A DNA stretch of 42,251 nucleotides, from assembly GCA_018060945.1 (NCBI GenBank), contig JAGOVB010000004.1, positions 1 through 42,251 on the forward strand, given 5' to 3'. The DNA comes from Minisyncoccota bacterium (GTDB lineage: Bacteria > Patescibacteriota > Minisyncoccia > Phycocordibacterales > PALSA-1337). The notes beneath the pieces are model-generated. The model did no database searches and was not told the origin of the DNA. It saw only the letters and a list, made by a program, of their open reading frames with translations. Shown one piece after another: positions 10,122 to 34,946 of the stretch. Position 1 is the stretch's first letter. Each line of letters opens with the position of its first letter. Made by a program: the position numbers and the translations under genes.

Positions 10122-10160
10122 AGGAGCTTATAGTAGCATTTTTAGGCCTAAAAAACAAAG

Positions 10161-11075
10161 CTAAACGATGCTTTCTACTTCTCTTTCGATCGTGAGCCCA
10201 GTCTTTTCAAAGACTACACCTTCTATCTTTTTTGCAAAGTCATCCACCTCTTTTGCACTTGCTCCGCCATGGTTTACGATTACTAGTGCCTGGTTCTTGT
10301 AGGTACCTACATTTCCGATTTTAAAATCTTTCATCCCACAAATTTTATCGATGATGAATGCAAGAGAGACTTTTTCTGTTTTTTCATCTACTGGATACTT
10401 TGGTAAATCTGGATAGTTTATCGAACCTATTGGTACGATTGGATTTTTGAAAAAAGAGCCAGCGGTTCCTAAGATATGCCAGTCAGGCAGTTTTTCTTTT
10501 CGGATCTTGATCACTGCGTCACGAATCTCTTGTGGTGTTTTTAAACCCTCTAGTCCTTTGTAACTCGTATTTATCTCATTTGTAAAATTGAACTCAACAT
10601 GAGTGATGATCCACTGTTTTTCTCTTTTAAAAATACTGTTGCGATAGCTAAACTGGCACTCTTCTTTTGTAAAAATACGTTCTTCGAGTGTGTCAGCATT
10701 GAGGGTATGCACCTTTTCGATTCTGTCTTTGACCTCGACACCATATGCTCCGATATTTTGAACAGGTGCAGCACCGATAGTCCCTGGGATATATGAAAGA
10801 TTTTCTAGTCCATACTTGCCTTCGGCAACACACTTTGCGACAAAATCATCCCAGTTATCGCCGGCATTGCTGATATTCATCTTTATAACTAAACCATCAT
10901 AGTCACCCATCAAGATATTTGAGCCACCGCCGAGGATAAAAAACTTTTTATTTGCTTTCAAAGCTTCTTTTAATTCTTCCACAGTACTAACCTCGCAAAA
11001 AAACCGTGCAGTTCCGCCGGTCTTGAATGTCGTATATGGGATGAGCGAAACGTTTTCTTGAATTTTTATACTCAT
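10161..11075 (-). CDS. murB: UDP-N-acetylmuramate dehydrogenase
   Basis: LGGGSNIL, IPGTIGAAPVQNIGAYG, FSYRNSIFK, AGSFFKNP, LVIVNHGGA. Confidence 0.96.
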   Translation of the reverse strand: MSIKIQENVSLIPYTTFKTGGTARFFCEVSTVEELKEALKANKKFFILGGGSNILMGDYDGLVIKMNISNAGDNWDDFVAKCVAEGKYGLENLSYIPGTIGAAPVQNIGAYGVEVKDRIEKVHTLNADTLEERIFTKEECQFSYRNSIFKREKQWIITHVEFNFTNEINTSYKGLEGLKTPQEIRDAVIKIRKEKLPDWHILGTAGSFFKNPIVPIGSINYPDLPKYPVDEKTEKVSLAFIIDKICGMKDFKIGNVGTYKNQALVIVNHGGASAKEVDDFAKKIEGVVFEKTGLTIEREVESIV

Positions 11076-11140
11076 TGATGGCCGTCGGGTGTGAGCTCCA
11101 AATAATGTCTAATTAAAATGTGAGTACAGCCGACAGCCAT
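11072..11140 (-). CDS. Candidate 22-aa leader peptide (uORF) MAVGCTHILIRHYLELTPDGHQ
   Basis: ATG at 11140; its TGA overlaps the murB ATG as ATGA. It lies entirely within the leader hairpin. No homology evidence. Confidence 0.3.
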   Translation of the reverse strand: MAVGCTHILIRHYLELTPDGHQ

Positions 11141-11141
11141 C
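11077..11141 (-). promoter_or_regulatory. Long leader hairpin abutting the murB start codon
   Basis: Minus strand GATGGCTGTCGG (11141-11130) pairs with CCGACGGCCATC (11088-11077): 12 bp with one G-U that favours the minus strand. The stem ends 1 nt before the ATG. Confidence 0.7.
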
Positions 11142-11159
11142 GATAAGTACAACAAAAAT

Positions 11160-11168
11160 AGTATACCA
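11160..11168 (-). promoter_or_regulatory. Extended -10 promoter for murB
   Basis: TGGTATACT on the minus strand, just downstream of a terminator. Confidence 0.55.
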
Positions 11169-11186
11169 TATACCGAAACGCTGCCC

Positions 11187-11265
11187 AAAAATGCAAAGTC
11201 CCGCCGAGACGGGACGCTTGCATAGACATTATTACTTGGGCTCAACAGATTGTTGTGCTCACACC
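11187..11265 (-). ncRNA. Candidate ~80 nt small RNA with an intrinsic terminator
   Basis: TATAAT at 11276-11271; internal hairpin CAACA-ATC-TGTTG; terminator ATGCAA-GC-GTCCCG-TCTCGG-CGGGAC-T-TTGCAT then TTTT; no ORF; complementary to the murB leader. Confidence 0.55.
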
Positions 11266-11282
11266 AAGATATTATACACCCA

Positions 11283-13160
11283 CTATTTGTTTTGTATAGG
11301 GTTTTTCTTTATGTAATCTATCACAAAACCGTATAGCTTCTGCGCCTCTGGATAGTTTGGGTCTAGATCAAGTGCTTTTTTTGCATTATCGAGCCCACTT
11401 TTATAATCATTTTTATTTAACCCATTGATTGAAAGCTCGAGCAATGGTAACTGCTTGTTTGGGGTGAGTTCATGAGCTTTTTGGAGCAATGGTGACGCTA
11501 GATCAAAAGCACCCATATGATTGTAAAATGACCCACCAAATAGATATCCTCGAGCATCGAGTGGTGCGTACTGTATCTGTTGAGTGATAGCTTGCTGAGC
11601 GAGGATAAAGAAGTCTTGTTTGATTTCTTTTACATCAGTTTTTTTGATAGTACCCTCTGCATTTTGAATAATTTGTTCACGAGCCTCTTGAGAACCCGTC
11701 ACATTGTATGACATAGCTTTCAAATACATCTCGATATTCTTTTTGTACCCTTCTGGGTGCTGACGGAATCCATCGATAATAGCAGTTCCCACACGAATAG
11801 GGACAATACTAGTAAAGTACAGCAAGGCTCCTGAAATAATGATAATTATTGGGGTGACGATAAGATCGCGTACGTCGATATTTATCGTGTATTTATTTAT
11901 ATACTCTTTTGCAGTCTGTGTGTGAAGAAAAGCGAGAAGACTAAAGAAAAGAATGTAGCTTGAGATATTGTCGAACACCGTCATGTTGTGAACTGCATAA
12001 GCTGCTAGTATTCCAACTAATACTGCTTTTTCTTTTAGAGTAAAATCTCCTTTCCATATAGCTCGCAATGCGAGGATGTAGAGTAAAATGTATGCCAAGA
12101 ATCCGAGTAGCCCAGCTGCGATAAACCAGTCGAGGAACACATTGTGTGCTCGATCAAACCACGCCTCTTCTGTCCACATTTTTGGATTGTAGAACTTGTT
12201 AAAGACATAGTTGAAACCATCCTGACCGTATCCAAGAATAGGTTTTTCTTTTATACCCTCTATCGCAATCGGCCAAATATATTTTGCACGCGGATTATCT
12301 AGAAGCTTTTTTACAGAAAGACTCTGTGCTACGCGATTTAGTGTATTGCTATTTTTAACAAAACTAGTTTCTTGTGCAATATATAGTGTTGTCACTGAGA
12401 CAACTACTAACGCGATCACCGCGAACGCTATTCTTCTACCCACGAGGTCTCCTTTGGCCTTCCATGCATAGAGCACTGAAGCGATAAAGAGTCCCACGCC
12501 GATACCGATGATTGTTCCTCGTGTCGCTGTCTTGTAAATGATAAATAATTGCAAAAGAATAACAATACTGTATGTCATATGTGCCCAGACATGTTTACTT
12601 CGCTCTATCCAGACATACAAAGCCAAGCCTATGCTCAAGAGCATATACACCGCAAGATACGCAGCATTTCCCAAAGTTCCGTCGAGTCGATCAGACCCTT
12701 GGCGAATATCGATCGCTCCACCCAACTGGAAGAGTCCATATATGGCGATGATTACTGATACTCCGATAGATGTATTCATCCAGTGATACCAATATTTTTT
12801 TATCATTATTCCTGACGCGACAAAGAAATACATCCAAAGATGAAGGATCATAAAGAATCCTTCCATACGCTCAAAGTTTGACCAAAAGCTCTTGTGAGGA
12901 TTGATACCAAATGAATCTGCTAAGAATGCAACTGTCAGTAAACCAAAAACTGCGAGAGAAATCCAAGATTTCTTTGGACGATACTCTGGATCCCTAACTG
13001 CAAGGATGAGATAAGTAGCAAAAATAATATCGACTACAATTCTAAAGAAAAAAGCTTTTCCAGTGATGAATGGAAAAAGTAAAGATGAAGATATGATAAG
13101 CGGTGTAAAAGGTACTAAAAAAATCCCCGCAATCGTCACCCATTTAAGTATTTTATTCAT
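11283..13160 (-). CDS. O-antigen ligase-like (Wzy_C) membrane oligosaccharyltransferase with C-terminal TPRs
   Basis: About 12 TMs; RLDGTLGNAAYLA, TATRGT, GYGQDGF, RAHNVFLD; TPR-like AKKALDLDPNYPEA. Confidence 0.88.
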   Translation of the reverse strand: MNKILKWVTIAGIFLVPFTPLIISSSLLFPFITGKAFFFRIVVDIIFATYLILAVRDPEYRPKKSWISLAVFGLLTVAFLADSFGINPHKSFWSNFERMEGFFMILHLWMYFFVASGIMIKKYWYHWMNTSIGVSVIIAIYGLFQLGGAIDIRQGSDRLDGTLGNAAYLAVYMLLSIGLALYVWIERSKHVWAHMTYSIVILLQLFIIYKTATRGTIIGIGVGLFIASVLYAWKAKGDLVGRRIAFAVIALVVVSVTTLYIAQETSFVKNSNTLNRVAQSLSVKKLLDNPRAKYIWPIAIEGIKEKPILGYGQDGFNYVFNKFYNPKMWTEEAWFDRAHNVFLDWFIAAGLLGFLAYILLYILALRAIWKGDFTLKEKAVLVGILAAYAVHNMTVFDNISSYILFFSLLAFLHTQTAKEYINKYTINIDVRDLIVTPIIIIISGALLYFTSIVPIRVGTAIIDGFRQHPEGYKKNIEMYLKAMSYNVTGSQEAREQIIQNAEGTIKKTDVKEIKQDFFILAQQAITQQIQYAPLDARGYLFGGSFYNHMGAFDLASPLLQKAHELTPNKQLPLLELSINGLNKNDYKSGLDNAKKALDLDPNYPEAQKLYGFVIDYIKKNPIQNK

Positions 13161-13168: not shown

Positions 13169-14113
13169 TTATACTATATTCTTTTTTAATTTTTCAGCCA
13201 TAAACACGTCAGTATCTCTTCGAGATTCATGGGTCATCCCCCCAATATGTGGCACGATGAGGAGATTTCGATTTTTCTTGGCGTATTCGGCAAGTGGATG
13301 ACTGCCAATCTTTGTACCCGCAAAACTAGTCTCGCCGTCGAGTACGTCAGTAGCGTATCCAGCAATTATTTTCTTTTCGAGTGCGTCGATCAAATCTGTC
13401 TCATTTACGAGCTTTCCTCGTGAAGTATTTACGAGGTATGCGTTCGGCTTCATTTTTGAAAATGTAGCTGCATTGAACATATACTCCGTTTCTGGAGTGA
13501 GGTGCACGTGAATAGAGATGACATCACTCTGTGCGAGTAATTCTGCGAAGCTTACTTTTTTGTACGTATCTGACTCCACATTTGGATCAGTAAAAATCAC
13601 CTTCTTGCCCATGGCCTGACCATAGCGCGCCATCCATTTTCCCAATCGGCCCAAGCCAACCACTCCCAAGGTTTTTCCATGAAGCGAGTGTCCTTTGAAA
13701 CTTTCTCGATCCCATTCCCCTTTCAAAACAGCCTCAATTGACTGAGGAATATTGCGAGCTATAGAAATCATCAGGGCCAATGCTAATTCGGCGGTACCTG
13801 TAATTGTATTTAAAAATGCGTCTTCACCTTTTAGGCTCAAAACTTTTATCCCTTTTTGTTCTGCATATTTTACATCGATATGGTCGAGACCAGTGGTTGC
13901 AGTCACAATCGTTTTTAGCTTTGGTGCAGCGTCGATAACTTGAGGGTGAAAAGTAAGTCCAAGTCCAATAAAAGCGATGTCATAGTCTTTTATTTTATTT
14001 ACCAGCTCTTCCTGGGTCGGAATAGTATAGTCAACTGTTCCTAAGGTATCTAGGATTTCTTTTGCTGCTGGGTCAAACGCTTCACCGATTGTATTGAGGA
14101 TGCGATATGTCAT
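13169..14113 (-). CDS. D-2-hydroxyacid dehydrogenase (PGDH-like, no ACT domain); probable start MTYRILN at 14113
   Basis: TGLDHID, GLGRLG, NTSRG, DVLDGE, PHIGG. The 5' extension in the ORF track crosses a terminator. Confidence 0.88.
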   Translation of the reverse strand: MTYRILNTIGEAFDPAAKEILDTLGTVDYTIPTQEELVNKIKDYDIAFIGLGLTFHPQVIDAAPKLKTIVTATTGLDHIDVKYAEQKGIKVLSLKGEDAFLNTITGTAELALALMISIARNIPQSIEAVLKGEWDRESFKGHSLHGKTLGVVGLGRLGKWMARYGQAMGKKVIFTDPNVESDTYKKVSFAELLAQSDVISIHVHLTPETEYMFNAATFSKMKPNAYLVNTSRGKLVNETDLIDALEKKIIAGYATDVLDGETSFAGTKIGSHPLAEYAKKNRNLLIVPHIGGMTHESRRDTDVFMAEKLKKNIV

Positions 14114-14148
14114 AGAGTTATTATCTATTAAATCCAAAAAAAGGCAAG

Positions 14149-14173
14149 AAAAAAGCCCCGCACATTGCAGGGC
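14149..14173 (-). terminator. Intrinsic terminator of the GC-rich GT-B gene
   Basis: GCCCTGCA-ATG-TGCGGGGC followed by TTTTTT. Confidence 0.8.
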
Positions 14174-14197
14174 CTGCGCCATCCATGAAAGATGGTA

Positions 14198-15190
14198 TTA
14201 CTTGATGATCTCTTTGATCATCTTCCGGACCGCTTCGCCGGGCTCTACCGGCGACTGGAAAAACTCGAGCGCCCGATCGGAATAGGGCGCGTAGTCGATC
14301 TTCGCCAGACTCCCCGAGAAGTCCTCGGACAGAGGGCACGAAATCCTCTCAGTGCAGAGTGGCCATTCGTCGCTACCGGTTGCATCCTTGAGACGGGTCT
14401 TTGCCGCCGGTGAAAACCAGGTAAAGACCGGAATGCGCTGGCATGCCGCCTCGATGCCGATACCGGAAGCAGACTCCAGAACCCAATCGACACCGGGAAG
14501 AATGTTCGACCCAGACATGGCAGACGCGGAGATGAGCCGAGTATGCATGCCTGTGCCGACGGCATCCTCATAGGTCTCCACCAAGTTTTTGTCTCCAGGA
14601 TGGAGCGAGATCAGGGCAACAGCGTCACTCAAACGAGCGATCTCAGCCGCCTTCTTGAAATGCAAGAGGTTGACCTCCAGCGACTTTCCGCCGGGGACGA
14701 GGATGAGTTTCTGGTCATTGTCATAGTCCAGAGCGGTGCGAGCTTCTGCCCGTGTCTTCTTGGGATAGAAGAACGTCTCCCACATCGGATTACCGGTGGC
14801 GACGACCCGTGTCGATGTCAGGACTCGCCGAGCATCCCTAGCCTGTGCATCAGAGATGTGGAGCAGAGTAGCCCCTGGCATTAATCCCTGCAACCAGGGC
14901 CGATTGTGGACGCCGAACGTGTCAGCAAAAAAGATAACCCGCACGCGGTATACCATCGCCTGTTTGACAGCTTGAATCTCCACAGCTGCCAACTCGGCCG
15001 AAGAGGACATGCCAACGATGAGCACCTGCGAGCTGATGATCGCTTTGACGTGATCAGCGTTGTTTCCTGGCATTTCCTTGCCTTGGGCGAGGAATCTTAA
15101 GGTGGTGTGACCGGCCACTTCGAGAGCGGTCGCGAGAAGTTGTAGCGCCTGTGAGGGAGCCACGTCCTGTGCGATAAGAGTAATTTGCAT
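14198..15190 (-). CDS. GT-B fold protein (UDP-GlcNAc 2-epimerase/TagF-like superfamily), GC-rich; probable start MQITLIAQD at 15190
   Basis: VATGNPMW, ILVPGGK, SLHPGD, SGIGIEAACQRIPV. Predicted promoter lies at 15229-15257, so the upstream GTG start is unlikely. Confidence 0.7.
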   Translation of the reverse strand: MQITLIAQDVAPSQALQLLATALEVAGHTTLRFLAQGKEMPGNNADHVKAIISSQVLIVGMSSSAELAAVEIQAVKQAMVYRVRVIFFADTFGVHNRPWLQGLMPGATLLHISDAQARDARRVLTSTRVVATGNPMWETFFYPKKTRAEARTALDYDNDQKLILVPGGKSLEVNLLHFKKAAEIARLSDAVALISLHPGDKNLVETYEDAVGTGMHTRLISASAMSGSNILPGVDWVLESASGIGIEAACQRIPVFTWFSPAAKTRLKDATGSDEWPLCTERISCPLSEDFSGSLAKIDYAPYSDRALEFFQSPVEPGEAVRKMIKEIIK

Positions 15191-15208
15191 GTTGTATGTA
15201 GTGTACTT

Positions 15209-15257
15209 ACGCAACGTTGCGTGGCAAAACACTATCACGATTATCCATGTGAGTCAA
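15209..15257 (-). promoter_or_regulatory. Sigma70 promoter with a perfect 14-bp palindrome at the start site
   Basis: TTGACT (15257-15252), 17 bp, TAGTGT (15234-15229); ACGCAACGTTGCGT at 15209-15222. Confidence 0.7.
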
Positions 15258-15259
15258 TA

Positions 15260-15703
15260 TTAGACCTTTGGGACTTTTATGATTGCGAGACGTGCCTTGC
15301 CAGTGGTTTTATGCTGATGTGGTTCCCCTGCTGGTATCCATAGCCAATCACCTTGTTTCAAAACAACCTCAGTTCCTCCTTTTATTTCTTTTGCTTTCCA
15401 TTCCCTATCATCAGTACTACCGTCTGCATTCTTTTTTACCCATGGATCTACCATCTCTCCACCGTATATAAAAGTTACTTCACCATCGAGGCATAGCCAC
15501 AGATCAGCTTCGTGTCTGTGGATTTCTGCTTCATTTGAAATATTTACATCTTCTAAAATATTGAGTGGGACTTTTCCCTCGAGTGATAGAGCACGGAGTG
15601 GTTCCAATAATTTTTTAACGGGAGATTCTGAATACGAAGTATTTAGTGTTTCGTCTATTACTGATTTTTTAATATAGACGCATTTATTAGAATTCATATC
15701 CAT
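15260..15703 (-). CDS. Cupin-fold protein
   Basis: Metal-binding cupin motifs EIHRHEADLWLCLDG and GDWLWIPAGEPH; overlaps the neuA stop. Confidence 0.85.
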   Translation of the reverse strand: MDMNSNKCVYIKKSVIDETLNTSYSESPVKKLLEPLRALSLEGKVPLNILEDVNISNEAEIHRHEADLWLCLDGEVTFIYGGEMVDPWVKKNADGSTDDREWKAKEIKGGTEVVLKQGDWLWIPAGEPHQHKTTGKARLAIIKVPKV

Positions 15704-16400
15704 TCTTTTTTAGTTCTTGTAACATATGTTCTGCTTCGATCCAGTCGAGTGGGTAGTCTATGTCTACTGAGCGCTCTTTTGGAACAACATGACCTGTTAC
15801 AAAATCTCCATACAGTCGATTGTCTTTCATGATGAGGTCACGACGCATTGCATAGACAGCACCGCTGCGACGATACACAGTAGGCAAATCTTGTCGTCGA
15901 GTCCCCTCTTCTTCAGGAATAGAATATGCTATGACGTTGTCACCTTCTATCTTTTTCATTTTGATAGGATGGGCACTGCTCGGAACTTGGACAAGTGAAA
16001 CTGAACTGTCTGCTTTTGTATCAATCAACTTTTGAATAGTTCCATCTAGGTCATCGACTGTTCGGAATGGTGAAGTTGGCTGGAGAATGACCACATGGTC
16101 GACTATTATATTTCGTGCTTTCTCATAAAAATCAATTGCGTGCTGCATCACAGGCAGATGTGGTGTCCCATCAGCCGCCAGTTCTTTTGGACGCATAAAA
16201 GGAACGTCTGCACCATATTTTTTACACACTTCAGCGATCTCGACGTCGTCAGTTGAGACGATGAGGTGATTCATCAATTTACTTTTCTTTGCTACATCGA
16301 TAGTGTATGCGATGAGCGGTTTGTCACCGAGCATCTTTATATTTTTCCCTGGTATTCCTTTTGATCCGCCGCGAGCGGTAATGACGCCTAGAATATTCAT
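15687..16400 (-). CDS. neuA: CMP-nonulosonate (acylneuraminate) cytidylyltransferase
   Basis: ITARGGSKGIPGKNI, VSTDD, LQPTSPFR, RRQDL, SVDID. Confidence 0.93.
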   Translation of the reverse strand: MNILGVITARGGSKGIPGKNIKMLGDKPLIAYTIDVAKKSKLMNHLIVSTDDVEIAEVCKKYGADVPFMRPKELAADGTPHLPVMQHAIDFYEKARNIIVDHVVILQPTSPFRTVDDLDGTIQKLIDTKADSSVSLVQVPSSAHPIKMKKIEGDNVIAYSIPEEEGTRRQDLPTVYRRSGAVYAMRRDLIMKDNRLYGDFVTGHVVPKERSVDIDYPLDWIEAEHMLQELKKNGYEF

Positions 16401-17491
16401 TATATATGTTTTTTATTAATTGGTTCGTACTTTTTTATCGCCTTCTTTGTCTTTTTGTTAAGTATAGTATGAAACTCATTTGAATAGAACCCTTTCAAAT
16501 GCATACGTGGACGCATCGCATATACCATATCAGATGTGATGATGGTACCGGCTGGGATATCTTGTCCTGCTACCAATGTTTTATTGAAATATGGTCTAAA
16601 TTTGTTTTTTGCTCCCTCTAACTGCTTTGTCTTCTTACCATAAAACTTTTTGGTATCGATGTCTTTGTATTTTTTGGTCTTAACTGAATTTACAAGTTCT
16701 TTCATCTCTTCTGGGGTGATAGAAGCTTTATGATCAGATCCCCATAGATTTCGTGAAAAAGAAAAATGCTTTTCGATAACCTGTGCACCCATCTTTACGG
16801 CTGCAAGTGGAATGGTGTTGTCCCCCACTGAATGATCAGAAAAACCAACTGTCACATGCGGATACTTCTCTTTGAACAATTCAATTGTTGAAAGATTAAA
16901 TGCTTCGGGTGGACATGGATAGACACTTACGCAATAGAGCACAATAAGTGGTGATCCTCTTTTTGTAATATACTCCACAACCTCATCGAGTTCAGTATGA
17001 CTCACCATACCAGTCGATATGATGATAGGTTTTTTGGTTTTTGTGATGTAGTCGAGTAACACATGGTCTTGAACATCTCCTGATCCGACTTTCCAGAATG
17101 GAACTCCAATACTATCAAGCTTTACAGCCGCTTTTCGTGACATGGGTGTAGAAAAAAAGATTATTCCTTTTTTCTTTGCATACTCTTTTAATTCTTTAAA
17201 GAAAGACAGTGGAGCTTCTTCGGTATTTCTTTTAACCCAATTGTATCGATCTGCTCCTTTGAAATGCGGAGATACAACAGGGATATTTGCCTGCTCGTCT
17301 TCAACCTCGTGTGTTTGAAACTTTACTGCATGAGCACCTGCTTTTGCTGCCGCATCGATCAGTTTCTTGGCATTCTTTAAATATACTTTGGTCGACTGAG
17401 ACGCTTCGGTTTGAATAAAATTCTTGCCGATTTCAGCAATGATGAATGCGCCGTCTTTTTTTATTATCTTAGGAATTAGCGACTTTGACAT
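16400..17491 (-). CDS. neuB: Nonulosonic acid (N-acylneuraminate) synthase with a C-terminal SAF/antifreeze-like domain
   Basis: AEIG, VKFQT, STPMS, KVGSGD, ISTGM, GFSDH, IEKHF, C-terminal MRP. Confidence 0.92.
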   Translation of the reverse strand: MSKSLIPKIIKKDGAFIIAEIGKNFIQTEASQSTKVYLKNAKKLIDAAAKAGAHAVKFQTHEVEDEQANIPVVSPHFKGADRYNWVKRNTEEAPLSFFKELKEYAKKKGIIFFSTPMSRKAAVKLDSIGVPFWKVGSGDVQDHVLLDYITKTKKPIIISTGMVSHTELDEVVEYITKRGSPLIVLYCVSVYPCPPEAFNLSTIELFKEKYPHVTVGFSDHSVGDNTIPLAAVKMGAQVIEKHFSFSRNLWGSDHKASITPEEMKELVNSVKTKKYKDIDTKKFYGKKTKQLEGAKNKFRPYFNKTLVAGQDIPAGTIITSDMVYAMRPRMHLKGFYSNEFHTILNKKTKKAIKKYEPINKKHI

Positions 17492-17526
17492 ATAAACATC
17501 CTATTCTAGTTTGGATTTTTTGTCCA

Positions 17527-17556
17527 TTGACATAGGCATCTTAAATATGATATTTT
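17527..17556 (+). promoter_or_regulatory. Sigma70-type promoter of the EamA gene
   Basis: TTGACA at 17527-17532; extended -10 TGaTATTTT at 17548-17556. Confidence 0.5.
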
Positions 17557-17582
17557 CATAATAGGATTTCAACAAAAAATAA

Positions 17583-18497
17583 ATGAAAAAAATCGAGAAC
17601 TGGAGAATATGGGCCATCTTGGAAGGCCTCACCAAAACTGTGTCCCGCACGTTTCAACACGTCGTAGGTAATGCTTCGCCCTCACTAGGCACCACCCTAC
17701 TCAGTGCGAGTATTATGGGGTGGGTACAATTCTTGGTGACCGGTGTCTGGGCAAAAAAACGTAAGGTTGCACTACTAAGCCCGGTTGGCATGTTTGGGTC
17801 CATGATGTTTGGACTCTTCGCACTCATCTCAACAGTGTTGGGATTTATTACATTCATGAATGGAGGTGAGATCGCTACCAGCACCTTTATTGTTACCATG
17901 GCTATCGTGCCCGGTATGATCATCGACATTATCTTTTTCAAGCACAAGACAAATGTGCGTGAGTGGATTGGTATGTGTATTGCGATTCTAGGTGGCTGGG
18001 TCATCCTCGGATCTCCCACTTCTGGAATGTCAATGCCACTGTGGATATGGTTTGCGATCTGCAACAGCATAACCGTAGCCATCAACCAAGGAATCTCTCA
18101 GAGTATCAAAGAGGTTGACCCGATGTTTAAAAACTTCTGGGGCGGCGCTGTCACTGCAATCGGCGCGACGACAGCACTACTTATCGTCGGCCAAATCGGT
18201 CTATTGCACTATGACCCAAGCCTACAAAAGCTCTGGATGGCTTCTGTTGCGATGGGGTTCATCACGATTGCGATGTGGAGCTTTAATCTTCTCTCTTACA
18301 GACAAGGCGCAAGCATTGCGCTGAAGAAGCTCGTCATGAATGCAACCTACCTCATCACGGTTATGGTCTCTGGCATCCTTTTCTTCGGAGAGGTGCTTTC
18401 ATGGCAAAAGCTCATTTCAATCCCCCTCTTCTGTGTGGCACTCGTACTCATGGATAAAAACGTGTGGGAATTTATCACAGGAGGTAGAAAAAAGTAA
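17583..18497 (+). CDS. DMT/EamA family transporter (about 10 TM), inverted within the neu genes
   Basis: Two ~5-TM repeats; IFFKHKTNVREWIGMCIAILG and FFGEVLSWQKLISI are typical EamA C-terminal helices. Confidence 0.85.
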   Translation: MKKIENWRIWAILEGLTKTVSRTFQHVVGNASPSLGTTLLSASIMGWVQFLVTGVWAKKRKVALLSPVGMFGSMMFGLFALISTVLGFITFMNGGEIATSTFIVTMAIVPGMIIDIIFFKHKTNVREWIGMCIAILGGWVILGSPTSGMSMPLWIWFAICNSITVAINQGISQSIKEVDPMFKNFWGGAVTAIGATTALLIVGQIGLLHYDPSLQKLWMASVAMGFITIAMWSFNLLSYRQGASIALKKLVMNATYLITVMVSGILFFGEVLSWQKLISIPLFCVALVLMDKNVWEFITGGRKK

Positions 18498-18510
18498 TCC
18501 CTCCACAAAC

Positions 18511-18540
18511 AAAACCCCGGCGCGCGCGCCGGGGTTTTTT
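18511..18540. terminator. Bidirectional terminator between the EamA gene and neuC
   Basis: Perfect 28-bp palindrome AAAACCCCGGCGCGCGCGCCGGGGTTTT. Confidence 0.9.
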
Positions 18541-19698
18541 CTATTCGAAAAACATTTTTTGAGTATATAGAGGAACGGTCGCAATCGTCTTTGCTATATT
18601 TTTACTTGTATCTTTTGCAAAGTACATTGTAGAAGGTTTGTACTTTCCGTTTTTGATTTGTTTTTCGATTGCCTTTCGAATGGCTTTAGTGTCATGAGTT
18701 ACAGTCATTACGTTTTCACCGCGAAGTCGCTGGTTCTGTCGCTTTCCGATGTTTACTACCGGTAGACCGATAAATGAAGATTCTTTGATTCCTGCTGAAG
18801 AGTTTCCGATGAGGCAGAATGCATTTTGAAGTAGCCAGATAAATTCTCGTGGGCCGAGGTATCGCATAAAACGGATCTTGTGTCCTTTTACTTCATCTTT
18901 AAAGTTTCGAAGCTCCTGTGAAATATCCTCGGAACCAGCATCAATATTTGGCCAGAACCAAAGTGTCGGAATACCGAGATCATGGACTGCTTTCAAAATC
19001 TTTCGAGTATTGATGTGTACAGTTTTTACATCCTGGATGTCTGGGTGATACATGACCATCAAATATCCCTTTGTCAGATCAAAGAGCGCTCCGCTTCCAG
19101 TTTTCTTTAAATCAATTTTATTTGTTTTCTTCGAAAGCTTTTCTACCACCTCGATGTCCGGACTACCAAAGTTAAAGACATGTGACGGTGCTTCCCCTAG
19201 TTTTAATATTCTTTTTTTAGCTGGCTCATTTGTAGGAAAATGAATATGCGAAAGTTTAGTTATCGCATGTCGAACGCTTTCATCGATAGAACCAGACAAG
19301 TCACCTCCTTCTATATGTGCGACAGGGATAGACATGTACGCAGCTGCAACAGTTGCAGAAAGTACTTCAAAACGATCACCTCGAACTACAATGACATCTG
19401 GCTTTATTTGGTTGAAAAGCGTAGTGAACTCGATGATACCGAGACCAGTGGTCTTTGCTTTGACGATAGAGTCATTCCCCTCTAGGTTAAAGTGGAGATC
19501 GTAGAGCTGATGGTGTCCGTCTTTTTTGAGGAGTTGTTTAATATCAGCAAATTTCGAAGTAAATTTTGATGAAAGCGCAGGTCCACCTACAATGATGTGC
19601 AAATCGACATCATCGCGCTTTGAGAGCTCTTCGAGCACGAGCAAGCTCCGGCTATAGTGGATAAAGTTAGTTATTACGAAGCAAACCTTTCGTTTCAT
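18541..19698 (-). CDS. neuC: Hydrolysing UDP-N-acetylglucosamine 2-epimerase
   Basis: RGDRFEVL, HIEGGDLSGSIDESVRHAITKLSHIHF, WPNIDAG, GNSSAGIKE, GKRQNQR. Confidence 0.9.
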   Translation of the reverse strand: MKRKVCFVITNFIHYSRSLLVLEELSKRDDVDLHIIVGGPALSSKFTSKFADIKQLLKKDGHHQLYDLHFNLEGNDSIVKAKTTGLGIIEFTTLFNQIKPDVIVVRGDRFEVLSATVAAAYMSIPVAHIEGGDLSGSIDESVRHAITKLSHIHFPTNEPAKKRILKLGEAPSHVFNFGSPDIEVVEKLSKKTNKIDLKKTGSGALFDLTKGYLMVMYHPDIQDVKTVHINTRKILKAVHDLGIPTLWFWPNIDAGSEDISQELRNFKDEVKGHKIRFMRYLGPREFIWLLQNAFCLIGNSSAGIKESSFIGLPVVNIGKRQNQRLRGENVMTVTHDTKAIRKAIEKQIKNGKYKPSTMYFAKDTSKNIAKTIATVPLYTQKMFFE

Positions 19699-19701: not shown

Positions 19702-20679
19702 TTAGCTAATATGCAATATTTTTCTCAGAAAAGCAAGCCTTTTTGAGTATTTGAAAAGATACACAAATTTAACATATGGCGACCAAAGCTGAAGCCTTGT
19801 TTTGAGGTATAACCACTTTGGAATAGTCAGATTCTGGTTTGATTTTTGAGCAACGAGGCGGATATGGTGAGTATTTAGTCCGTCTGCTTTTTGCTCTGCA
19901 ATATCTTTTTGACTCTTGCCTTCATCGACATCGATATACACGATCTTGAAACCAGCTGCTTCGCAAAGCAACGAAAGAGTCTCTGGAGTAAACATATATA
20001 CATGATCGATCTGGACACCCGAAGTAAGTTTGCCCATCCGTCTGACCTGGTGACGCCAGTTTTTAACAGCGAGGAAAATATGACCCCCAGGCTTTAGATT
20101 TTCATGTGACCATAGTAGAAATTTCTTTGGATCCAAGAGATGATTGAGACTTTGTACACAAATAATATTTGAAGCCTTTCCCTCTGTTTTAATATCGACA
20201 TCTTCAAATAGACCTCGAATGGTCTTGATCCCTTTTGATAGAGCATAGTCTGACTCTTCTATCGAAGGCTCGATACCGAGTGGCTCGATATTTTTACCTG
20301 CCTCCCGCATACCGTACAGTATCCCCCCAGTACTAGAGCCGACATCGATAGTCAGTCCATCCTCGATGTATTTGCCAAGATATTTTACAATTGCTTGGCC
20401 GAAGCGGCGTGCTGATTCAAAATTTTTTTCGAGATTTGCTACGTACTCTCTGTTTTTTATCGTTGCACGATCTTGTCGATAAAAATACATATAGTAATCA
20501 TCGTAGTCTTTGTGAGACATACGAGGATTGATAAAGACGAGGCTACACTTTTTACACATCACGGTTGTCGCTTTTAATCCGTTTGTACTGCGACGAGCAA
20601 TAACTTTAAAGTCGGTACCACCGCAGATGTTACACGAGATAGTCTCTAGTTGTTTTTTGTTGTAGTCAAATTGTTCCAT
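19702..20679 (-). CDS. Class I SAM-dependent methyltransferase with an N-terminal Cys4 motif
   Basis: CNIC...CKKC; IDVGSSTG; QSLNHLLDP. Confidence 0.88.
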   Translation of the reverse strand: MEQFDYNKKQLETISCNICGGTDFKVIARRSTNGLKATTVMCKKCSLVFINPRMSHKDYDDYYMYFYRQDRATIKNREYVANLEKNFESARRFGQAIVKYLGKYIEDGLTIDVGSSTGGILYGMREAGKNIEPLGIEPSIEESDYALSKGIKTIRGLFEDVDIKTEGKASNIICVQSLNHLLDPKKFLLWSHENLKPGGHIFLAVKNWRHQVRRMGKLTSGVQIDHVYMFTPETLSLLCEAAGFKIVYIDVDEGKSQKDIAEQKADGLNTHHIRLVAQKSNQNLTIPKWLYLKTRLQLWSPYVKFVYLFKYSKRLAFLRKILHIS

Positions 20680-21989
20680 ATGTATCTGTATATTCTCTCA
20701 CCTGCAAGGCCATCTGCAAAGGCACACTGCTGGAGCACGAGCGCCTTTCGCTCTTCTTTTTTGTATTCAGGATGCTCTAAATATTTGTTTACCGCATCGA
20801 TGAGTTCGCTTTTGCTTGAGACGAGATCGATCGCATTAGTGCTCAATGCATTTTTATAATGAGCTGATTTGTAGTACTGAGTCGGTGACTTTAACAGTTG
20901 CGCACTCTTTTGGATTTCAAAATTGATATTGATAATCGGTTTATCAAAAACAGCTGCATCGACACTGATGCTCGATGCGTAGCAAACAAGTACAGACATA
21001 GTTTGCAAGGTCTTTTTTAGATGTGCTAGATCTTGGGCATTCATATCCCAGTCTACACCTCGTTTTGAACCAAAACGGATACCTGGTACGTCATACCACA
21101 GATGCGGTCGTTTCTTTAATTCTTCTTGATCGACAAAGTCATTTGGTTGAAAGCGTACAAGCAAATCACATTTTTCACGCAACTGATCTGATGTGACGAT
21201 GGTATACATGAGATCGATCATGTCCCAATCAGATATGCTGAACGCTCTCCCCATCGATGCGTAGACGATAAATTTCTTTTCAGGCGCAGGATACTTTTCT
21301 GGGGTGTAGAAATAATCATACTGCGGTAGACCACTTACATATATATCCTCAGCAGACATTTCGTTGTACGTGATGAGCTCCTGTTTTACCAATTCGTTAA
21401 ATACAATCGCCTTGTCTGGCAAAAGACGCATGATGCAGCGTGAAGTGATCTTGTCCCATGAATTTACAAAACCAATACTTTTTACCTTTCTCTTTTTTGC
21501 TTCGCGAAGCAGTGCTATTTCTGGTTCATCAAAAAGATGCGCAAGAAAGACTAGGTCCGGTTTATATGTATCAAAATACTTTGCATATGTTGCGTCGCTT
21601 ACCAATAGAAAATCAAAAAGACGAGCAATCTTTCTAACCAATGGCCGAGCCAACAGAAAATTCATACAGAGCCCCGTATAATAACGGACATACTCCCCTT
21701 CATACTCGCTCACCATTTTTCTTTTCAAATTAGTTGTCTCTGTTCGGAGTAAGACAAACTTTAGCTTTGTAAAAAAGCGATCGATTGCTGATGGCGATTT
21801 CCATTCGACAACTTCAAACACTATCCGAGGATCATTGAATTCTTTTTTATAATAGTCGACTTTGTCCTGACTCTTTGTGAACAAAACAATTCGAATATCA
21901 CTATTCGTGAGCAAATTTGTTAGGATGGTTGTTCGTAGAATATTCTTGACTTCTACTCCCTCAAATATGGTGATAAAGATTGTCTTCAT
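20646..21989 (-). CDS. CDP-glycerol glycerophosphotransferase-like GT-B protein (paralog 3)
   Basis: NSWDKITS, GLPQYD, VRFQP, SSISVDAAVFDKP. Confidence 0.8.
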   Translation of the reverse strand: MKTIFITIFEGVEVKNILRTTILTNLLTNSDIRIVLFTKSQDKVDYYKKEFNDPRIVFEVVEWKSPSAIDRFFTKLKFVLLRTETTNLKRKMVSEYEGEYVRYYTGLCMNFLLARPLVRKIARLFDFLLVSDATYAKYFDTYKPDLVFLAHLFDEPEIALLREAKKRKVKSIGFVNSWDKITSRCIMRLLPDKAIVFNELVKQELITYNEMSAEDIYVSGLPQYDYFYTPEKYPAPEKKFIVYASMGRAFSISDWDMIDLMYTIVTSDQLREKCDLLVRFQPNDFVDQEELKKRPHLWYDVPGIRFGSKRGVDWDMNAQDLAHLKKTLQTMSVLVCYASSISVDAAVFDKPIININFEIQKSAQLLKSPTQYYKSAHYKNALSTNAIDLVSSKSELIDAVNKYLEHPEYKKEERKALVLQQCAFADGLAGERIYRYIWNNLTTTKNN

Positions 21990-23281
21990 ACCTTAAGTAT
22001 ACTAAAAAGTCGTTCGGTAGATTTTCCATCCAAAAAACCGACTTGCTCCCTAGCTAGATTCTGGATGAGCTTTGCATCGATATGATAATCTGCAACATCT
22101 TTTTTAAATTCTTCCAACGATGTCGCAAACTTCACACCTTTACTTTCAATAATTGGAATAAAGTTACTGTAATCATAGTATCGACGAATACTGTCATAGT
22201 AATCTCTCTTTTGATATCCATCAAAACCAAATAATATAGTTGGTTTATCCATATACGCTGAATCGATGACCATAGTCGATGGACCAGAGACGACTAGATC
22301 AGAGAAAAATAGTGTCTGCGCCAAATGTATATCATCTTCCTTGCGGATCTCAGTGGTTTTTATATTGTCAGGGTTTGTCTGTGCACGGTCATAGAGGACT
22401 TTTATCCGTGAAAACTGTGGACTATGTTCAAGCTCGCGGACATAGTCTCCTGGCGGCAATCGCACCAATATTTGAAAGTTTTCCGGGAGAGTCTTGTCTA
22501 AAATATCTATAATATCTCGATCAACCGTATTTTTCTTTAGGTATCTATCGCCGATCGGAACAAACAAAGCCATCTTCTTTTGTGGATCACCACCGATCTT
22601 TTCAAAATATGCCTGCCTGTTTGTATAGTCCACTGCCTTGTACATATCGTAATGTGGAATACCGATGATGTTGATTATGCTTTGATCGATGTTTTGAACC
22701 TGCACAGCTTCTTTTTTGATTATTTCATTCCACACTACCAACTGATCTGGAATCACTCGTATCAATCCTTTTGACGTGAGATTATCCCATGACCGTACCA
22801 TACCAATTGCTTTCACGCCTTGTTTCTTTGCGTGATTGAGTAGAGCGATATCGATTTCGTTTTGTATATCAGTACAGAACACTGATGTAGGACTATATTT
22901 TTTAAAAAGATCAGTAAAGGCCGGAGCAGAACTATATCGTTCGAAAAGCCGAATGGCTGCAAAAGCGATTTTGTTACTTAGAATTTTTGAAATAAAAAGC
23001 CCACTACCTTGCATCTCTGTTTTTCTTTTTATATCAAGAGTGACCGTATTCAGAGCAGCAAGCGAAAGATATTTCATCAATCCTTCACGCCTACCTTGCT
23101 TGAGTGTTATACCTTCAACGATTGCCTCTGGATATGTCTCTCTAAAATATGCTTGTTTTGATTCTGAAACAATGAGAACAACCTTTATATTTTCTTTCTT
23201 CAGCATAGTCAAAATACCCGTGGAAATGATATTTCTTGAGATGAGTGGGTGGCAACTCGTTATAAATATTGTTCTACTCAT
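21986..23281 (-). CDS. CDP-glycerol glycerophosphotransferase-like GT-B protein (paralog 2)
   Basis: RSWDNLTSKG, GIPHYD, VRLPP, STMVIDSAYMDKP. Confidence 0.8.
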   Translation of the reverse strand: MSRTIFITSCHPLISRNIISTGILTMLKKENIKVVLIVSESKQAYFRETYPEAIVEGITLKQGRREGLMKYLSLAALNTVTLDIKRKTEMQGSGLFISKILSNKIAFAAIRLFERYSSAPAFTDLFKKYSPTSVFCTDIQNEIDIALLNHAKKQGVKAIGMVRSWDNLTSKGLIRVIPDQLVVWNEIIKKEAVQVQNIDQSIINIIGIPHYDMYKAVDYTNRQAYFEKIGGDPQKKMALFVPIGDRYLKKNTVDRDIIDILDKTLPENFQILVRLPPGDYVRELEHSPQFSRIKVLYDRAQTNPDNIKTTEIRKEDDIHLAQTLFFSDLVVSGPSTMVIDSAYMDKPTILFGFDGYQKRDYYDSIRRYYDYSNFIPIIESKGVKFATSLEEFKKDVADYHIDAKLIQNLAREQVGFLDGKSTERLFSILKV

Positions 23282-24625
23282 TTATATGATCGTATCGAGA
23301 AAATCTACACTTCTTTTATATGCCAAGCCGTCTTTGAAAGAGATAAAGTCATTGAACACTTTGTGTCGACCATCTTTTCTAATTTCTGGGTTACGTAGGC
23401 TAGTATTTACATCGGCAATCAATTGCTCCAGACTCTTCGAAACAGCTACCGCGTCGGCTGCAACAATTGGTTTATAGTGGCTAAACGTATAAGCTCGGGC
23501 GTATTTTTCTGGGTAAGAAATATTCACCACCGGCTTATCGAAGACCATTGCCTCGAGACTGATGGTTGAGCAATAGTTGACCACCACATCAGCGTACATA
23601 AGAGTGCTCTTTAGATTTTCAATATCATGTTCATGCATTTCAATGCGGGTACCCATTTCTTCAGACAAAAGTCGACCCGGGAACTCTACACACAAACCTT
23701 TGATACCTGATGTTTTATATTTTTCAAACTTTATAAACTCTTCTTTTGGGTGCATGCGGACAAAAATATTTGGAAATCCATCAAACCTTCCCTTCTCTCG
23801 AGCGCCAATCAGATTTTCCAAAAGAATGTTTTCATCTGGATAATTTCCTTTTGTGACGGTAGTGATGAGAATAGTCTTTTCTTTTGGATCGAGATTCTTA
23901 CTCAATAGAAACTGTTCTCGACTGGTTTTGTTTGGACTAAAGTATGAATCAAAACGAATCGGCCCAGTAACAAAAACACGTTCAGGATTTTGTTTGTACT
24001 GTTCTACGGCTGTATTGCGAATGATCCTATTCCAAACGATGAGACCTTCTGGACGTCGGAAATGCATGCCTCCATTGTGGAGATTATCCCAGCTAAAGTT
24101 TACAGCGGCTGTTTTGACTCCCGCTTTCTTTGCGAGAATGATTGCCTCTGCATCAAAATGACTGAATCCGGGTGTCGAGGTGATCACCAAAGCAGGCTTA
24201 TGCTCTTTTATCTTTTCTAAAAATGCTTGTGACTGAGGAGCAAATCGTACTTCTAATTTAGTAAACAAATCATTTGTCCAAAATGAAGCTGGAGCAATGT
24301 ATGAAACATATCTCAAAAAGCGACGCTTCCAGTCTTTCATTCCCTGTTCCTGGTTTCGAACTATCACTGGCTCAAAATCGTATTTTCGGATTAGTGAATA
24401 ACGGAAATACTTTCCAAACACATTCCAGAATTTTGGAGACTGAATCTTCCACGGTACATAGGTCACATTGGGAGAAGTAAAGTATGGCTTATTATCCTTG
24501 CAAAAAGCTTGGGGCTGCATAAACACAACTACTTTGTATTTGCTTGAGAGGTACTGAATATATTCGGTCCTCAAAAAGTCAGAAGAATAAACGAAATTTG
24601 AGACAAAAAGGAAGACTGTCTTCAT
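23282..24625 (-). CDS. CDP-glycerol glycerophosphotransferase-like GT-B protein (paralog 1); probable start MKTVFLF at 24625
   Basis: FSWDNL, GPIRFD, VRMHP, STISLEAMVFDKP; TAGAAT 8 nt before the ATG. Confidence 0.8.
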   Translation of the reverse strand: MKTVFLFVSNFVYSSDFLRTEYIQYLSSKYKVVVFMQPQAFCKDNKPYFTSPNVTYVPWKIQSPKFWNVFGKYFRYSLIRKYDFEPVIVRNQEQGMKDWKRRFLRYVSYIAPASFWTNDLFTKLEVRFAPQSQAFLEKIKEHKPALVITSTPGFSHFDAEAIILAKKAGVKTAAVNFSWDNLHNGGMHFRRPEGLIVWNRIIRNTAVEQYKQNPERVFVTGPIRFDSYFSPNKTSREQFLLSKNLDPKEKTILITTVTKGNYPDENILLENLIGAREKGRFDGFPNIFVRMHPKEEFIKFEKYKTSGIKGLCVEFPGRLLSEEMGTRIEMHEHDIENLKSTLMYADVVVNYCSTISLEAMVFDKPVVNISYPEKYARAYTFSHYKPIVAADAVAVSKSLEQLIADVNTSLRNPEIRKDGRHKVFNDFISFKDGLAYKRSVDFLDTII

Positions 24626-24664
24626 AGAGAGGTATTCTAACACACATGATATAATAGTAAAATT

Positions 24665-34125: not shown

Positions 34126-34946
34126 ATGTTGCCATAAACACTTTTGAGCATAAGTAGGTCTTTTTTACTTGCTTTCAATAGTTCAATATTTTTTGCTTCG
34201 AGCGCCTTGAGTACAGCAATCCCCTTTTTATCTTTAGTTTTTTCATAGACAGACAAGAATGCAGCAAAATCTTTTATAAAGCAGCCTCCACCAGCGCCTC
34301 TACCGCTCTTGTGGATCGGATTTAGATAGTAGTGTGACATCATCGGGTCTGCTTTGATCGCTTCTTTTATTGCATCCCATCCTCCGCCGTGTTTGATAGA
34401 GAGGTCGTACAAAATATTTGAAAAGATAATCTGCATATATCCATGCACATTGTGAGCGTACTTGATGATTTCCGCTTCTTCACTTTTACAAACGAGAGTA
34501 AATGGTGCTTTTGGTAATACTGAAAGAATCTTTTTGGCGATGCTCTGATATTCTTTGTTGTCGACTGGGATACCTACGATATTTCGGTCTGGATGAGCCG
34601 CATCATGTGCTGCGGTAGCTTCAACCAAGAACTCTGGTGAGTGTACTATCTTTATTTTTGGAAACTTTCTTTGCAATGCCACAGTAGTTCCTGGGACGAT
34701 GGTAGACTTGATCACCGCAACTGTTTTTACATTTTTTAGCGCATCTTCGAGAATAGATACATCAAATCCTTTTTTAGTAGTCGGTGTTGGTACTGCAATA
34801 AAAACAAGATCACATGTAGTAATTTTGCTTTTATTTGCCTTGTATTCTGGCTCAATTGAGTAGCGCACGACATCATAGCCGCGATTTACAAAATCATCCG
34901 CATAATTCTTTCCTACCCATCCCTGTCCGATAAAGCCGATTTTCAT
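34122..34946 (-). CDS. UDP-glucose/GDP-mannose dehydrogenase family protein, short form without the C-terminal UDP-binding domain
   Basis: GFIGQGWVG, AVPTP, KSTIVPGT, SPEFL, IKYAHN, GGGCFIKD; 274 aa. Confidence 0.85.
   Translation of the reverse strand: MKIGFIGQGWVGKNYADDFVNRGYDVVRYSIEPEYKANKSKITTCDLVFIAVPTPTTKKGFDVSILEDALKNVKTVAVIKSTIVPGTTVALQRKFPKIKIVHSPEFLVEATAAHDAAHPDRNIVGIPVDNKEYQSIAKKILSVLPKAPFTLVCKSEEAEIIKYAHNVHGYMQIIFSNILYDLSIKHGGGWDAIKEAIKADPMMSHYYLNPIHKSGRGAGGGCFIKDFAAFLSVYEKTKDKKGIAVLKALEAKNIELLKASKKDLLMLKSVYGNI

Follow-up and report, generated by a model that had tools for sequence, protein, structure and literature searches.

Three genes on the minus strand of a 42,251-nucleotide stretch of DNA from a Minisyncoccota bacterium (hereafter the window, which is contig 7 of the 629-kb, 33-contig, 89%-complete assembly that was searched) encode a NeuB, a NeuC and a NeuA. 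The NeuB was found to belong to a monophyletic, large and uncharacterised clade that is sister to the textbook enzymes. Our tentative reading, which we hold at slightly less than an even chance, is that the window contains an intact operon for a cytidine monophosphate (CMP)-activated nine-carbon 2-keto-3-deoxy sugar acid (a nonulosonic acid), with enzymes drawn from a distinct, co-inherited clade. That the product would be a neuraminic-type (5-acetamido) nonulosonate differing from N-acetylneuraminic acid (Neu5Ac) is proposed with the same reserve, just short of even confidence. The three genes are as follows.

15687..16400, minus strand: NeuA, predicted CMP-nonulosonate synthetase (Pfam CTP_transf_3)
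16400..17491, minus strand: variant NeuB, predicted nonulosonic-acid synthase of the variant clade, TIM barrel plus SAF domain, 363 amino acids (Pfam NeuB and SAF)
18541..19698, minus strand: NeuC, predicted hydrolysing nucleoside diphosphate-N-acetylhexosamine (NDP-HexNAc) 2-epimerase of the partner clade, 385 amino acids (Pfam Epimerase_2; NCBIfam NeuC_NnaA)

The start of neuA and the stop of neuB overlap by 1 nt, and in some relatives the variant NeuB and NeuA form one fused reading frame (P0007; L008, positions 7926-9806, plus strand).

Motifs, clade and active site of the variant NeuB

The translation of 16400-17491 (minus strand) carries AEIGKNFIQTEASQSTKVY and LYCVSVYP. The first-pass annotation of this DNA had pointed to altered conserved motifs in NeuB and NeuC, and these were present exactly as quoted there and proved to be near-fixed across the clade (120 NeuB homologues and 62 NeuC partners). 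Database searching returned more than 120 homologues of the variant NeuB at 58-94% identity, nearly all from Patescibacteria metagenomes and carrying generic names only. EIGKNFIQ(T/S) followed by an insert, (L/M/F)YC(I/V)SxYP and K(V/I)GSGD were near-universal in 120 of them. Because the altered motifs are near-fixed across this set, they are signatures of a family and reflect neither decay nor chance.

Profile searches gave 225.7 bits for the NeuB domain (PF03102; cut-off 22.1) and 25.7 bits for the SAF domain (PF08666; cut-off 21). On the NCBIfam equivalog models the protein scored 255.6 bits for NeuB (TIGR03569) and 222.7 bits for PseI (TIGR03586), in each case below the cut-off (399.65 and 340.25, respectively). 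An AlphaFold2 model built on 29 family members had a predicted local distance difference test score (pLDDT) of 93.3 and a predicted template modelling score (pTM) of 0.91, and matched the structures of NeuB, SpsE and PseI (1xuu, 1vli and 8h2c).

In trees built with FastTree and with IQ-TREE in quick mode, the clade was split from all other sequences by a branch with an SH-like approximate likelihood ratio test (SH-aLRT) value of 100 and a stem of about 0.65-0.86 changes per site. PseI, a LegI-type reference, BpsE, a haloarchaeal homologue and other Patescibacteria NeuB copies all lay on the other side. The phylogeny suggested at first pass as a check on NeuB thus delivered a distinct clade. 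A scan of one genome per species found a relative in at least 580 genomes, mostly of Patescibacteria, with a few records labelled Gemmatimonadales, Planctomycetota or Woesearchaeota. When an even sample of 400 Patescibacteria genomes was searched, 57 had some NeuB homologue and five had a member of the variant clade (E < 1e-100), below which there was a clear gap, the remaining matches showing 39% identity or less; none of the sampled genomes from the window's own order had one. Thus, the clade is widespread but patchy. The titles and abstracts searched on nonulosonate synthesis in Patescibacteria, or the candidate phyla radiation (CPR), held no description of it.

Residues were mapped through a phmmer alignment of the variant NeuB (P0001) to N. 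meningitidis NeuB (1xuu), with positions counted along it, and residue roles were taken from PMC11339185 and PMC8208679. On this basis Glu25 corresponds to E20, Lys53 to K57, Gln55 to Q59, Thr110 to T115, Lys129 to K134, Ser132 to S137, Ser154 to S159, Tyr186 to Y191, Ser213 to S218, His215 to H220, Glu234 to E240, His236 to H242, Asp247 to D253 and Arg314 to R327. The metal ligands His215 and His236 (which sit in SDH and E(K/R)HF motifs, the latter reading EKHF in this protein), the catalytic Glu25 and Glu234, the phosphoenolpyruvate (PEP) ligands Lys53, Lys129, Ser132, Ser154 and Ser213 and the SAF-domain Arg314 are therefore all retained, and each of these positions was at least 90% conserved across 82 clade members. 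The N-acetyl contacts, Arg314 plus an aromatic residue at position 288, are kept as well.

Clade-specific residues were then sought by comparing the 82 members with 15 other family members, a set that N. meningitidis NeuB entered only via PDB-search alignments and that holds no experimentally proven Neu5Ac-pathway NeuB sequence. Invariant in the clade and specific to it were Lys23, Phe25 (His elsewhere), His76, Phe77, Arg82, Met117, Trp133, Asp139, Trp250, Lys255, Phe302, Lys304 and Met326, and a nine-residue insert in the beta1-alpha1 loop was likewise clade-specific. His76 and Phe77 occupy the positions of Gly73 and Asn74 in the N. meningitidis enzyme, Met117 that of Phe112 and Asp139 that of Glu134. 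The C6 hydroxyl of N-acetylmannosamine (ManNAc) is bound by Asn74, a residue of the beta2-alpha2 loop that is described as fully conserved in Neu5Ac synthases but not in other family members (PMC11339185); Phe112 is listed as potentially involved in catalysis or substrate stabilisation (PMC8208679). In the variant NeuB the Asn74 equivalent, Phe77, lies inside an invariant P-H-F motif, where BpsE and a second NeuB copy at one related locus (L081, described below) read P-G-N. By the secondary structure of the model, most of the clade-specific positions would fall in loops that follow beta-strands, on the active-site face at the top of the barrel. Alignment and model together suggest that the sugar pocket has been remodelled around a retained catalytic core. 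More speculatively, five gained basic residues hint that the distal end of the sugar is anionic or differs in some other way.

Two of the changes carry little weight as markers of specificity. The Glu134 to Asp exchange (E134D) was considered as a marker of new chemistry and rejected, as it is frequent in working enzymes, being found in 29% of environmental NeuB and also in archaeal and eukaryotic synthases (PMC8208679). The His of the "LHC" motif was similarly considered as a metal ligand and rejected: by the 1xuu count it is His181, which is absent from the lists of catalytic and metal residues in PMC11339185 and PMC8208679, and the metal ligands His215 and His236 are in place. The LYCVSVYP sequence, which had been put forward as a sign of altered specificity, therefore says little in that respect, and outer members of the clade keep the His.

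These features bear directly on a simpler explanation, namely that the cassette makes plain CMP-Neu5Ac and that the clade residues reflect lineage drift or compensated substitutions, with specificity unchanged, in a branch of Patescibacteria that is old and evolves fast. We regard this as a genuine possibility, if one falling well below an even chance. It is favoured by the full set of catalytic residues in both NeuB and NeuC, by the retained N-acetyl contacts and by the commonness of E134D in working synthases, but it has to accommodate an invariant Phe in place of the ManNAc C6-hydroxyl ligand, about a dozen other barrel-top loop positions fixed to new residues and a NeuB score far below the equivalog cut-off.

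The NeuC partner and inheritance of the cassette

The NeuC translation (18541-19698, minus strand) begins ...VCFVITNFIHYSR, and the N-terminus of the 62 NeuC proteins that accompany a variant NeuB reads ITS-x-IHY-(S/A/G)-R. On the NCBIfam NeuC_NnaA model (TIGR03568) it scored 337.5 bits, above the cut-off of 235.9, a result that counts in favour of plain Neu5Ac. Its best solved relatives were LegG of A. baumannii (5xvs) and the epimerase domain of human GNE (4zht). Residues were numbered by alignment to 4zht, in which the N-terminus was covered, and clade tallies refer to the same 62 proteins.

Arg19, which stacks on the uracil and binds the alpha-phosphate, belongs to a set of nine residues listed as strictly conserved among epimerases, whether hydrolysing or not (PMC4793188). 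In the NeuC of the window Arg19, Asp21 and Ser23 of GNE correspond to Phe12, His14 and Ser16. Across the clade the Arg19 position is Arg in 19 members, Phe in 16, Lys in eight, His in six and Gly in four, with other residues in the rest, and the Asp21 position is His in 58 of 62. Seven of the remaining eight residues of PMC4793188 were tabulated (Gly182 being left out) and all were kept in this NeuC: Gly111, Asp112, His132, Gly136, Arg147, His220 and Ser301. Asp112, Arg113, His132, Asp143, Arg147, Asn253, Ser301, Ser302, Glu307 and Arg321 were invariant in the 62 proteins, and Glu134 was kept here and in 58 of them. The hallmarks of hydrolysing enzymes (Arg113 and Ser302) and the catalytic Asp112, Glu134 and Asp143 are thus all present. 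Because these residues are kept, NeuC is predicted to be a catalytically complete epimerase of the hydrolysing type in which the contact to the nucleotide has been relaxed. The earlier description of NeuC as altered is accordingly borne out for the loss of Arg19, but the protein passes the family cut-off for a NeuC.

The NeuC partners of variant NeuBs formed a clade of their own (support 99), apart from the NeuCs found beside other NeuB copies. Gene linkage was assessed in the 44 related loci where the variant NeuB had 4 kb or more of flank on each side, counting neighbours within 6 kb; only homologues of genes in the window were queried. NeuC was present in 36 of the 44 loci, NeuA in 37, a 2-hydroxyacid dehydrogenase in 29 (usually right after NeuA), a Wzy_C-TPR protein in 20, a TagF-like gene in about 20 and a second NeuB in 10. 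The usual order was NeuB-NeuC-NeuA-dehydrogenase. The conserved fourth gene, the dehydrogenase, had been overlooked at first pass, where the stretch 16400-19698 was described as NeuB and NeuC; those two genes are indeed there, together with a transporter gene of the EamA/drug-metabolite transporter (DMT) type on the opposite strand (17583-18497).

Comparison with a 94%-identical relative (L007) gave ratios of nonsynonymous to synonymous substitution rates (dN/dS) of 0.048 for NeuB, 0.021 for NeuC, 0.030 for NeuA and 0.062 for the dehydrogenase, with dS at 0.5-0.7. These low values indicate that the cassette genes are under strong purifying selection and clearly in use. The unusual motifs and the sub-threshold NeuB score could in principle mean that the genes are decaying or catalytically dead in a reduced genome, but the reading frames are intact and tightly coupled, catalytic residues are kept in more than 80 orthologues and dN/dS is 0.02-0.06, so that we find this explanation scarcely credible.

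Several related loci carry a second set of genes. L081, a chromosome record of 1.23 Mb, has the variant cassette at 7905-11931; after it come a TagF-like gene and a second NeuA-NeuB-NeuC set (13359-16290). The NeuB of this second set scored 391 bits on TIGR03569 and has the N. meningitidis-type motifs VIPGN, KIGSGECNNY, GPDIV and WVKRPGT, and its NeuC reads RADYSR. L020 and L062 resemble L081 in having two cassettes, L003 and L015 carry a further NeuB type, and second NeuB copies in other Patescibacteria loci scored 349-391 bits on the same model. Two complete parallel sets in one locus would most simply mean two different products. These paired cassettes are the strongest support found for changed specificity, as a variant cassette that made plain Neu5Ac would be redundant with the adjoining N. 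meningitidis-type one.

Other NeuB-like proteins were also seen in these loci. A third, short type of 323-336 amino acids, with the motifs ELCQNHNGD, KVASYD and LHCVTSYP and 136 bits on TIGR03569, occurs in L038 (7015-7983), L040, L043 and L019, where it lies upstream of the variant NeuB, between the latter and a NeuA-dehydrogenase pair. Just upstream of the variant cassette in L005 (333-6727) is a phosphonate cassette that includes a 239-amino-acid NeuB-domain protein without SAF, together with a nitroreductase, a cytidylyltransferase-PEP-mutase fusion, a thiamine pyrophosphate (TPP)-dependent decarboxylase, an Fe-alcohol dehydrogenase and a B12 radical S-adenosylmethionine (SAM) enzyme.

Gene neighbourhood, precursor supply and the likely product

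The cassette lies in a tightly packed minus-strand operon that, by open reading frame (ORF) and profile annotation, runs from 24643 down to 11283, from TagF-like genes through to a Wzy_C-TPR gene. Its other members, and the transporter gene that interrupts it, are listed here.

20646..24643, minus strand: three TagF-like glycosyltransferase B-fold (GT-B) paralogues of the same operon (weak Glyphos_transf and BFO_1060 matches)
19702..20679, minus strand: SAM methyltransferase directly upstream of neuC (Pfam Methyltransf_23)
17583..18497, plus strand: EamA/DMT-type membrane transporter between neuC and neuB (Pfam EamA, 29.6 bits)
15260..15703, minus strand: small cupin, accessory to the cassette (Pfam Cupin_2; weak DUF386/YhcH and MPI-cupin matches)
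14198..15238, minus strand: 346-amino-acid protein, probably a GT-B/TagF-like transferase (no Pfam match; ESM-Atlas neighbours)
13169..14182, minus strand: stand-alone D-2-hydroxyacid dehydrogenase, conserved fourth cassette gene (Pfam 2-Hacid_dh_C, 174 bits)
11283..13160, minus strand: Wzy_C (O-antigen-ligase-like) plus TPR membrane protein (Pfam Wzy_C, 75.3 bits)

NeuA gave 86.2 bits on Pfam CTP_transf_3 and 180.4 bits on the NCBIfam PseF model (TIGR03584), below its cut-off of 205.7, and had no NeuA equivalog match in the NCBIfam profile search. It aligned over its full length with CMP-Neu5Ac synthetases (9ftb, 6ifd and 1eyr; E 4e-32 to 6e-24). The three TagF-like paralogues are candidate nonulosonate transferases, and final transfer of the glycan is likely to fall to the Wzy_C-TPR protein.

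Among the accessory genes, the methyltransferase upstream of neuC is conserved in the nearest relatives (L007-L013), and the cupin recurs in 10 of 81 loci. The EamA transporter was found at the neuC-neuB position only in the nearest relatives (L007-L009) and within 6 kb in 8 of 81 loci. The EamA/DMT superfamily includes nucleotide-sugar transporters, and this protein might conceivably move a precursor or the CMP-sugar. The 346-amino-acid protein, which recurs in 12 of 81 loci, matched no Pfam or NCBIfam profile; its gene is the fastest-changing part of the operon, with 68% identity to the L007 protein against 84-97% for its neighbours, and the surrounding 2-kb segment (14001-16000) is the most G+C-rich of the window (0.488, compared with about 0.40). 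The protein was considered as a hidden tailoring enzyme of the legionaminic/pseudaminic (Leg/Pse) type and rejected, since a TagF/GT-B-like transferase is suggested instead by its ESM-Atlas neighbours, clusters in which 13-58% of members carry Glyphos_transf.

The nearest solved relatives of the dehydrogenase were phosphoglycerate dehydrogenases, McyI and glyoxylate/hydroxypyruvate reductases. Its role might be to reduce a 2-keto acid, in the manner of a GhrB-type 2-ketoaldonate reductase, or to supply D-glycerate or D-lactate for a substituent, so that the final unit would be reduced, or acylated or etherified. The frequency and position of the gene beside NeuA, the purifying selection on it, the activity of its relatives on 2-oxo and 2-hydroxy acids and the presence of several methyltransferases in the window (by profile annotation) are consistent with this idea. 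So are the L006 and L081 clusters, with their MOFRL glycerate kinase and asparagine-synthase-type amidotransferase. Reduction at C2, however, would conflict with CMP activation by removing the anomeric hydroxyl on which NeuA-type enzymes act, the window showed no acyl-activating enzyme, the dehydrogenase is missing within 6 kb in about a third of the well-flanked loci, and the literature searched, as titles and abstracts, gave no precedent linking such an enzyme to nonulosonate synthesis. A link through glycerate kinase was rejected, as the assembly of this genome has no match to a MOFRL kinase. On balance a reduced or glycerate-/lactate-bearing final unit seems unlikely.

In the two distant loci, L081 (49-7959) and L006 (340-5633), the MOFRL/DUF4147 glycerate kinase and the amidotransferase adjoin the variant cassette, and L006 also has an aminotransferase, a nucleoside triphosphate (NTP) transferase and a CDP-alcohol phosphatidyltransferase-like gene. 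With the 2-hydroxyacid dehydrogenase, these extra genes look as if they could furnish a substituent of the glycerate- or glyceramide-phosphate kind.

The supply of precursors was examined across the assembly. The first-pass annotation had remarked on the lack of a Leg/Pse dehydratase, aminotransferase or acetyltransferase in the window, and this holds: no LegB/C/H-type dehydratase, aminotransferase or acetyltransferase was found in the window or in the 89%-complete assembly, which also gave no match to a DegT_DnrJ_EryC1 aminotransferase or a NeuD-family acetyltransferase. Its sole short-chain dehydrogenase/reductase (SDR) match was a generic 266-amino-acid epimerase/dehydratase on contig 21. 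An enolase, a MurA-family gene and a GlmU-like uridylyltransferase domain are encoded (and murB lies within the window), so that PEP and UDP-N-acetylglucosamine (UDP-GlcNAc) are expected in the cell. As no Leg/Pse feeder genes were found, a backbone of the neuraminic (5-acetamido) type is the simplest reading, subject to the caveat of an 89%-complete assembly.

That same caveat leaves some room for NeuC and NeuB acting on a di-amino 6-deoxy sugar of the Leg/Pse type, with the precursor supplied by the host cell or by unassembled genes. Among solved structures NeuC is closest to a LegG, some homologues of the variant NeuB have been named legionaminate synthase by the Joint Genome Institute (JGI), and Asn74 is likewise absent from synthases that do not make Neu5Ac. 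We nevertheless judge this route quite improbable: the assembly has neither a DegT-type aminotransferase nor a NeuD/PseH-type acetyltransferase, none was noted in the loci whose wider gene content was examined (L003-L006 and L081; the 80-locus comparison could not detect such genes), and the variant clade stands apart from the LegI-type and PseI references in the tree.

Two other routes were tried and set aside. For the animal-type ManNAc-6-phosphate route the genome had no ROK kinase (other kinase families were unsearched) and no KdsC/NANP-type phosphatase above cut-off, the sole KdsC-type match being far below it. For a ManNAcA/uronic route the only UDP-sugar 6-dehydrogenase-like ORF (34122-34946) is truncated at both ends: about 70 positions at the start of the profile are unmatched, and the C-terminal domain is missing. 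This UDP-glucose/GDP-mannose-dehydrogenase-like ORF (274 amino acids, minus strand) is wedged among GT4 glycosyltransferase genes; it matches only positions 71-181 of the NAD-domain profile plus the central domain, lacks the C-terminal UDP-binding domain and has too little space upstream for the missing N-terminus, and is a remnant left by truncation or else a short form of an unusual kind. Further along, a TrwB/TraG-like type IV coupling-protein ATPase (37921-39537, minus strand) adjoins the glycan island.

How the cassette would work can be outlined from these assignments. NeuC would take UDP-GlcNAc or a close NDP-HexNAc, eliminating the nucleotide and hydrating the glycal to give a free 2-acetamido hexose, which NeuB would join with PEP, using a divalent metal bound by His220 and His242. 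NeuA would convert the product to its CMP-sugar, and the TagF-like/GT-B proteins with the Wzy_C-TPR protein would transfer the sugar onto a surface glycan, the conserved dehydrogenase perhaps adding a further step. A difference from Neu5Ac might lie in a stereoisomer set by NeuC and NeuB or in a variant distal C7-C9 end.

A product other than Neu5Ac is preferred because the C6-hydroxyl ligand is replaced, Arg19 is lost and a second cassette stands beside the variant one in other genomes. Several observations weigh against it. The deep-branching NeuC partners retain Arg19, which uncouples the loss of this residue from the origin of the clade, and His181 to Tyr is not fixed in the clade of NeuB. 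Variation at E134D and N184 is known in active synthases (PMC8208679, PMC11339185). Paired cassettes could differ in regulation or acceptor and not in product. A 2-hydroxyacid dehydrogenase also accompanies the second, non-variant cassette in L020, and this gene is therefore a feature of Patescibacteria nonulosonate cassettes generally and not of the variant NeuB. Finally, the cassette stands alone in this genome: no other sugar-modifying enzyme was found there or is constantly linked to it, which makes UDP-GlcNAc to ManNAc to Neu5Ac the simplest chemistry. The suggestion made at first pass, a neuraminic-type backbone with changed specificity, is thus strengthened by the lack of feeder genes, by the Asn74 to Phe and Phe112 to Met changes, by Arg19 loss and by the paired cassettes, but plain CMP-Neu5Ac remains a serious rival to it.

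A more specific form of the preferred reading is that the cassette, dehydrogenase included, makes an undescribed nonulosonic acid, either a Neu5Ac stereoisomer or a sugar with a distal-end modification, possibly an anionic one. It would be built from a common NDP-HexNAc without Leg/Pse amination and be displayed on the surface of an ultra-small episymbiont, sometimes beside ordinary sialic acid. We put this forward as a possibility only, with a good deal more doubt than confidence.

Significance and comparison with known systems

Nonulosonic acids cap the outer ends of surface glycans, where they determine how hosts, phages and immune lectins recognise the cell. Patescibacteria have genomes of about 0.6-1 Mb and spend their lives attached to other cells, and some of them devote a dozen genes to a nonulosonate glycan despite this small size. 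Proteins of the clade are at present annotated as "N-acetylneuraminate synthase family" or "legionaminate synthase"; the Neu/Leg/Pse scheme by which sugar structures are predicted from genomes would gain a branch with this uncharacterised synthase/epimerase clade, which spans at least several hundred species genomes. Two residues that textbooks call "invariant", Asn74 of NeuB and Arg19 of the epimerase, can also be put to a natural test in the clade. Were the product only Neu5Ac, the clade would still show how far the pocket of a Neu5Ac synthase can drift.

The closest well-studied counterpart is NeuB/SiaC of N. meningitidis (1XUU/1XUZ), with which the variant NeuB shares 33% identity, the TIM barrel plus SAF architecture, the same metal, PEP and catalytic residues, and the sugar contacts Gln55, Tyr186, Asp247 and Arg314. 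It differs in having Phe for Asn74 (preceded by an invariant His), Met for Phe112, Asp for Glu134, Tyr for His181 and Ser for Asn184, in the Phe that replaces the His following AEIGxN and the nine-residue insert after it, and in the new Lys23, Arg82, Lys255 and Lys304. B. subtilis SpsE (1VLI), C. jejuni PseI (8H2C), the LegI-type synthase of a real leg cluster from a Sphingomonadaceae (L088) and BpsE of B. cereus G9241 have the same fold and PEP aldol-type chemistry at 29-30% identity, and the GxDH motif after beta-8 resembles that of SpsE. These enzymes fall outside the variant clade; they keep NH(x)G without an insert, most keep the His of (L/M)HC, and their pathways need the dehydratase, aminotransferase and acetyltransferase for which no candidates were found here. 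NeuC shares its catalytic and hydrolysing residues with human GNE (4ZHT), NeuC/SiaA and A. baumannii LegG (5XVS), but has Phe for Arg19 and His for Asp21. NeuA, alignable throughout with the CMP-Neu5Ac synthetases 9FTB, 6IFD and 1EYR and of the same Pfam family, differs from them in being fused to the variant NeuB in some relatives.

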